Below are positions 1-340 of a stretch of DNA of 340 nucleotides, one piece after another (within the stretch, counting starts at the first letter, position 1; each line of letters opens with the position of its first letter). The position numbers and the translations under genes were made by a program. The stretch lies in the sequence record AH003524.2; one strand, 5' to 3'. The notes under the pieces are model-generated. The model searched no databases. It was not told where the DNA came from and worked only from the letters and a program-made list of their open reading frames with translations. This DNA is from a phage.

Positions 1-111
1 GGGGATACGTGCCCCTCCACCCCCACCGCCACCCCCTACCAAAATAATTTCCGGTTGTCAATAGCCCCGCCTCATCATAGGCCCGAACTATCACAAACGG
101 AAAAGCGATAG
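1..111 (+). repeat. Left arm of a 111-bp inverted repeat; partner is 230-340
   Basis: Direct comparison: reverse complement of 230-340 equals 1-111 except at position 91 (t here, a expected from position 250). Complementarity is lost from 112 inward. Confidence 0.9.
12..40 (-). other. Mirror-image C-run tract on + strand (G-rich on - strand), same G-quadruplex / i-motif potential
   Basis: C runs on + strand at 12-15, 20-24 and 32-36. This is the exact reverse complement of 301-329, so it is one sequence element present in both arms. The first 40 nt are 30/40 G+C. Confidence 0.35.
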
Positions 112-120
112 CCCAAAACA

Positions 121-220
121 NNNNNNNNNNNNNNNNNNNNNNNNNNNNNNNNNNNNNNNNNNNNNNNNNNNNNNNNNNNNNNNNNNNNNNNNNNNNNNNN
201 NNNNNNNNNNNNNNNNNNNN
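121..220. other. Run of exactly 100 N: unresolved sequence, consistent with a conventional unknown-length scaffold gap
   Basis: 100 consecutive n characters. Length is a round number and the bases on either side are unrelated to each other (112-120 vs 221-229), as expected at a join between two contig ends. Confidence 0.8.
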
Positions 221-229
221 ATTTTATTC

Positions 230-340
230 CTATCGCTTTTCCGTTTGTGTTAGTTCGGGCCTATGATGAGGCGGGGCTATTGACAACCGGAAATTATTTT
301 GGTAGGGGGTGGCGGTGGGGGTGGAGGGGCACGTATCCCC
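230..340 (-). repeat. Right arm of the 111-bp inverted repeat; partner is 1-111
   Basis: Each 10-mer block of 231-340 is the reverse complement of the matching block of 1-110 (for example 331-340 acgtatcccc vs 1-10 ggggatacgt), and 230 c pairs with 111 g. Single mismatch 250 vs 91. Confidence 0.9.
301..329 (+). other. G-run tract with G-quadruplex potential (ggtagggggtggcggtgggggtggagggg)
   Basis: G runs on + strand at 305-309 (5 G), 317-321 (5 G) and 326-329 (4 G), plus GG doublets at 301-302, 311-312, 314-315 and 323-324. Strong G/C strand asymmetry. Only three runs of 3 or more G, so a canonical four-run motif is not present. Confidence 0.35.

Follow-up and report, generated by a model that had tools for sequence, protein, structure and literature searches.

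What does a stretch of phage DNA represent when its two halves are near-perfect mirror images of one another around a core that is mostly blank? The window analyzed here, the whole 340-nt stretch of record AH003524.2, poses this question, and candidate answers include a mobile or dispersed repeat, a structure that folds back on itself, an artefact of assembly, and the paired ends of a linear genome.

Layout of the window and the inverted match

The window consists of 120 determined bases, a run of 100 N (121–220), and a further 120 determined bases. An ungapped comparison of positions 1–111 with the reverse complement of 230–340 matched at 110 of 111 positions, and a repeat search returned the same symmetry. 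With a chance of ~1e-64 for at least 110/111 matches at one register, the earlier note was right both that these segments form an inverted repeat and that it lies far beyond chance. The sole mismatch between the arms occurs at 91 (T) and 250 (T on the plus strand, A when read inward). The inner nine bases of the two pieces, CCCAAAACA at 112–120 and ATTTTATTC at 221–229, are not complementary, such that, read inward, both pieces begin with GGGGATACG and part ways after 111 bases, the arrangement that a linear molecule with terminal inverted repeats (ITRs) would show at its two ends. Exactly 100 N denotes a gap of unknown length, and symmetry across such a run does not reveal how close the pieces lie; a shared first base in two inward-reading pieces suggests instead both ends of a linear replicon. 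The 118-nt core described previously stands as a count of the positions between the arms, but 100 of these are N, with nine unique bases on each side. There were no open reading frames of at least 20 amino acids within the window, and an Rfam search of the window (E ≤ 1) gave no match.

Match of the arms to the ends of the L17 and PR3 genomes

Each arm was searched by blastn against 50,697 phage records. All 120 bases of each were 100% identical to Enterobacteria phage L17 (AY848684.1; 14,935 bp, linear), at 1–120 and 14816–14935, and direct string comparison confirmed the match to the L17 termini. Phage PR3 (AY848685.1) was equally identical (100%), with an offset of one base (2–121 and 14817–14936). 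The remaining PRD1-group tectiviruses in the phage records matched at 83–91% identity, and every match occurred at the ends of a record. The L17 and PR3 genomes have 26 differences in 14,935 positions, and both agree with the window over its 240 determined bases, including the mismatch at position 91 and the nine-base inner flanks; the window differs from them only in carrying 100 N for the 14,695-bp interior. L17 is preferred to PR3 solely because the window starts exactly at the GGGG.

The window almost certainly holds the two physical ends of the linear dsDNA genome of a PRD1-group Alphatectivirus (L17 or the near-identical PR3), with arms that are ITRs and origins of protein-primed replication. 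The inverted arms lie at both termini of a ~15-kb linear dsDNA genome, and at 111 bp they are 83% identical to the annotated PRD1 ITR stretch (PRD1 1–119). They carry a terminal reiteration that is invariant in the family (GGGG at 1–4, CCCC at 337–340), and L17 encodes a terminal protein (by annotation) and a protein-primed family-B DNA polymerase; no finding contradicts the identification. The 340-base record would then be a deposit in which the two sequenced termini are placed on either side of a gap of undefined length. Its parts, with coordinates in the window, are as follows.

1–111, plus strand: left ITR of L17/PR3, equivalent to L17 1–111 (100% to AY848684.1 1–120; the PRD1 counterpart is annotated ‘5' inverted terminal repeat’, 1–110, in M22161)
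1–4, plus strand: terminal GGGG, complementary to the reiterated 3'-CCCC of the template, where initiation (at the 4th base) and stepwise sliding-back take place in the PRD1 mechanism (PMC5175343)
1–18, plus strand: invariant terminal block GGGGATACGTGCCCCTCC, the same in 16 ends from 8 genomes and inside the terminal 20 bp reported as necessary for PRD1 origin activity
19–76, plus strand: variable ITR middle, different among phages and equal at the two ends of each phage (alignment and difference matrices)
77–111, plus strand: conserved inner block ATAGGCCCGAACTATCACAAACGGAAAAGCGATAG, running to the ITR boundary and invariant in the family apart from base 91, which differs in the right copies of L17 and PR3
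112–120, plus strand: first nine bases of the unique left-end region, not complementary to 221–229; further inward, beyond the window, come the left early promoter and the terminal-protein gene
121–220, no strand: 100 N, placeholder for L17 121–14815 (14,695 bp), from the coordinates of the arms in L17
221–229, minus strand: final nine bases of unique sequence before the right ITR, located upstream of the right early operon (XII and XIX, leftward)
230–340, minus strand: right ITR, equivalent to L17 14825–14935 (100% to AY848684.1 14816–14935; the homologous stretch is the terminal repeat in the PR772 and CSP1 records)
250, minus strand: sole difference between the ITR copies, ITR position 91 being A on the right and, in agreement with the family consensus, T on the left

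The two inverted copies proposed by the earlier note are real, as the arms match two different ends of the L17/PR3 genomes. They are not, though, ~118 nt apart: 14,713 bp separate the ITRs in L17. Nor can the repeat run further outward, as had been suggested, since the outermost positions of the window, 1 and 340, correspond to the first and last bases (1 and 14,935) of the linear genome. Within L17, the terminal 18-mer and the inner block were found at the termini only.

Terminal repeats across the PRD1 group

Eight complete genomes (L17, PR3, PRD1, PR772, PR4, PR5, CSP1, and RH-42-1) were compared. The ITR was 110–111 nt in all eight, starting with GGGGATAC at both ends and ending with GCGATAG, an inner boundary common to the eight genomes that falls at 111 in L17. 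The homologous 110–111 bp are annotated as inverted terminal repeats in the records of PRD1 (M22161, M30146), PR772 (AY441783), and CSP1. The first 18 and last 35 bases of the ITR were invariant, except for position 91 in the right copy of L17 and PR3, and variation was located in positions 19–76. In the IMG/VR database, the inner 35-mer was present only near the ends of two tectivirus contigs.

Past the repeat, each end has its own flank. The left ITR is followed by CCCAAAACA in seven of the eight complete genomes, with CCCGAAACA in PR4, and the right ITR, read inward, is followed by GAATAAAAT in all genomes checked. Left/right homology inward of the ITR was sought by comparing L17 112–240 with its right-end equivalent, both by local alignment (score 18 against a shuffle mean of 15.7; 100 of 500 shuffles as good) and in register (identity 40/129; 312 of 2,000 shuffles as good). 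The repeat therefore truly ends at 111, as there is no significant left/right similarity beyond it.

These flanks bear directly on whether the window could be a foldback chimera or a contig joined across a gap to its own reverse complement. With 120 bases on either side of 100 N, of which 111 pair as reverse complements, the window does resemble a scaffolder self-join, and the juxtaposition of its pieces across only 100 N is indeed artificial. However, the pieces are not the same sequence, differing at position 91 and in the inner nine bases, and they match opposite ends of complete linear genomes from independent deposits (L17 and PR3 directly, six others homologously) with the same left- and right-specific flanks, which recur in eight or more independent genomes. 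Further, the ITR has been known by direct end sequencing since 1986; those of five of these phages were sequenced in that year (Savilahti & Bamford, Gene 49:199, listed in PMC8116208). An artefact, which the earlier note had also raised, is extremely improbable and, judged from the sequences, appears refuted by distinct unique flanks that match both ends of full genomes.

The two copies of the ITR within a genome had zero differences, or one in the case of L17 and PR3. Between phages, the ITRs had up to 20 differences in 111 positions, concentrated such that the ITR middle (19–76 and 265–322) was the most divergent part of the genome ends, while the adjoining 120 unique nt at each end had only 0–7 differences. 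That the copies match within a genome, yet differ at up to 20/111 positions between phages beside near-constant flanks, indicates that the two ends change together and thus evolve in concert. Such concerted evolution is familiar from work on PRD1, and joint change of the two ends was reportedly described for these phages long ago (Savilahti & Bamford 1993, J Virol 67:4696, a reference given in PMC11886824).

The L17 repeat agrees with the 110-bp PRD1 ITR in position, in the terminal 18 bases (including the GGGG), in the inner 35-base block with its boundary, and in the neighboring genes. The two differ at 20/111 positions, all in the middle of the ITR, and PRD1 is one base shorter; the PRD1 copies are perfectly identical, whereas those of L17 and PR3 carry one mismatch.

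The records of the group are variable at their outermost bases. Both ends of the PR3 record carry a single additional T beyond the GGGG (1 and 14937), and those of a PR772 record (AY441783) carry two (1–2 and 14945–14946); the other six genomes and a second PR772 record (AY848688, BLAST coordinates) are without them. The extra T in PR3 and AY441783 may be a product of end-cloning or tailing, or real heterogeneity. Many recent alphatectivirus genomes (e.g., BCE1, and the PKJ.* and PRD-color phages) are without 10–85 bases of one or both ITRs, and the BCE1 record begins at ITR position 73. Sequencing of protein-capped ends has been reported to be difficult (PMC11211187), and the missing ITR bases are consistent with this difficulty.

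Genes inside the repeats and other sources of inverted symmetry

Inward of the left ITR, L17 has a sigma-70-like promoter-like site (145–174), followed by the coding sequences annotated as the terminal protein (234–1013) and DNA polymerase (1017–2678). The polymerase, P1, matched Pfam PF03175 (DNA_pol_B_2, the organellar and viral type-B polymerases; E = 3.7e-80). The terminal protein matched no Pfam family and its PHROG family carries the label ‘unknown function’, such that its role rests on the GenBank annotation. Inward of the right ITR, two genes read leftward, XII and XIX, had matches to ssDNA-binding protein families. The right early promoter of PRD1 is annotated 145–172 from the right end (M30146); this promoter and the promoter-like site at the left of L17 both start 145 bases from their own genome end. 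In the AY8486xx records, the terminal-protein gene is labeled ‘XIII’ while its own annotation note gives P8 (gene VIII), and ‘Transclycosylase’ is misspelled, both of which are annotation slips in public records.

Long inverted arms also raise a local hairpin, a cruciform, or a covalently closed hairpin telomere, as in N15, Borrelia, and the poxviruses. When joined directly, the arms form a 111-bp stem of −152.5 kcal/mol, but in the genome they are 14.7 kb apart and a single arm is not self-complementary (own fold −14.3 kcal/mol, z = −2.6). L17 encodes a terminal protein and a protein-primed polymerase with no telomere resolvase annotated, and PRD1-type genome ends carry a covalently bound protein (PMC5175343), such that a structure of this kind has next to no chance of being correct. 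The fold of the single ITR had zero compensatory pairs in the family alignment, with paired columns all either invariant or broken. Each ITR also contains an imperfect internal inverted repeat (window 48–58 and 93–103), TTTCCG(G/T)(T/C)TGT paired with ACAAACGGAAA; its columns are nearly invariant, so covariation is uninformative as to a structure or a protein-binding site.

A transposable element (an insertion sequence (IS), a MITE, or a foldback element) with the arms as its terminal inverted repeats, or a dispersed bacterial repeat family present here as an inverted pair, is likewise scarcely credible. Such elements typically have long inverted arms flanking a core, but a search of 5,426 complete E. 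coli genomes and 72,556 plasmids at blastn sensitivity gave no match to the arms, the terminal 18-mer GGGGATACGTGCCCCTCC had seven scattered internal hits in 596 Gb of prokaryotic genomes against ~17 expected by chance (the only hit inspected, on the Streptomyces sp. cg28 chromosome at 166–183 of the inspected piece, had no similarity outside of the 18-mer), all real matches were tectivirus genome ends, no transposase is annotated among the 31 genes of the 14.9-kb L17 genome, and there is no target-site duplication, because the arms are without flanking DNA.

None of the causes listed by the earlier note (IS ends, a MITE, a foldback element, a local hairpin, a foldback chimera, or a scaffolder self-join) applies to arms that are the ITRs of a linear genome.

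Probable mode of replication from the ends

The function of these ITRs can be predicted from PRD1, in the literature of which initiation, sliding-back, the minimal origin, and the capacity of ITR-flanked DNA to act as a replicon are described. The PRD1 terminal protein is covalently bound to both 5' ends. The template ends in 3'-CCCC, and it is opposite the 4th of these bases that synthesis is initiated, after which the complex slides back three times (PMC5175343). Origin activity depends on the outermost 20 bp of the ITR, according to Yoo & Ito 1991 as cited in PMC4150772. The mechanism is established in PRD1, whose ITR is 83% identical to that of L17; by homology, L17 would replicate as PRD1 does. 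Terminal protein P8 and the family-B polymerase P1, the genes for which lie just inward of the left ITR, would form a heterodimer that recognizes the end and attaches dGMP to P8 opposite the 4th C of the template; the terminal bases would then be recovered in three slide-back steps, before elongation with strand displacement. Either end could fire, because both carry the same sequence.

The complementary ends of the displaced single strand could then anneal into a panhandle, a proposed route both for replication of the displaced strand and for the identity of the ends, though direct evidence for the panhandle is lacking according to PMC11886824. End-to-end annealing of the displaced strand would be thermodynamically easy, since a single strand made of both arms has a folding energy of −152.5 kcal/mol (z = −32.5), and a panhandle presumably exists in L17.

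The ITRs of phi29 (6 bp), Bam35, GC1 (326 bp), and adenovirus (~100 bp) resemble those of L17 in having identical ends, a terminal reiteration for sliding or jumping back, and a terminal-protein primer. They differ in length, priming residue, and initiating base, and no sequence similarity to the L17 ITR was found; the initiating template base is the 4th in PRD1, the 2nd in phi29, and the 3rd in Bam35 (PMC5175343).

Orthogonal replicons have been constructed in E. coli from linear DNA with 110-bp PRD1 ITRs and a plasmid expressing P1, P8, P12, and P19, of which P12 and P19 were reported to be dispensable for ITR-flanked replicons (bioRxiv 10.64898/2026.09.28.754915). The ITR of L17/PR3 has already been described and is an ordinary feature of the PRD1-type tectiviruses. 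With the ITRs of the group sequenced in 1986, their role as origins established, and their present use in orthogonal linear replicons, the identification has little value as a discovery.

A single difference between the two ends

The one detail left mildly unexplained is the T/A difference at ITR position 91 (window 91/250; L17 91 and 14845). It is common to L17 and PR3 only, with a T at this position in every readable end of the nine other sequences checked, and it has been retained in both L17 (UK) and PR3 (Australia). Position 91 sits in the otherwise invariant inner block, and the A of the right copy breaks one pair of the predicted internal hairpin of the L17 arm. A tentative and rather unlikely explanation is that the process that equalizes the ends starts at the terminus and seldom extends as far in as position 91, or that a right-end variant is tolerated or selected, the latter suggested because the position breaks a hairpin pair and lies in the invariant inner block. 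If true, position 91 would offer a naturally occurring marker of how often the ends of protein-primed genomes are homogenized and over what tract length.
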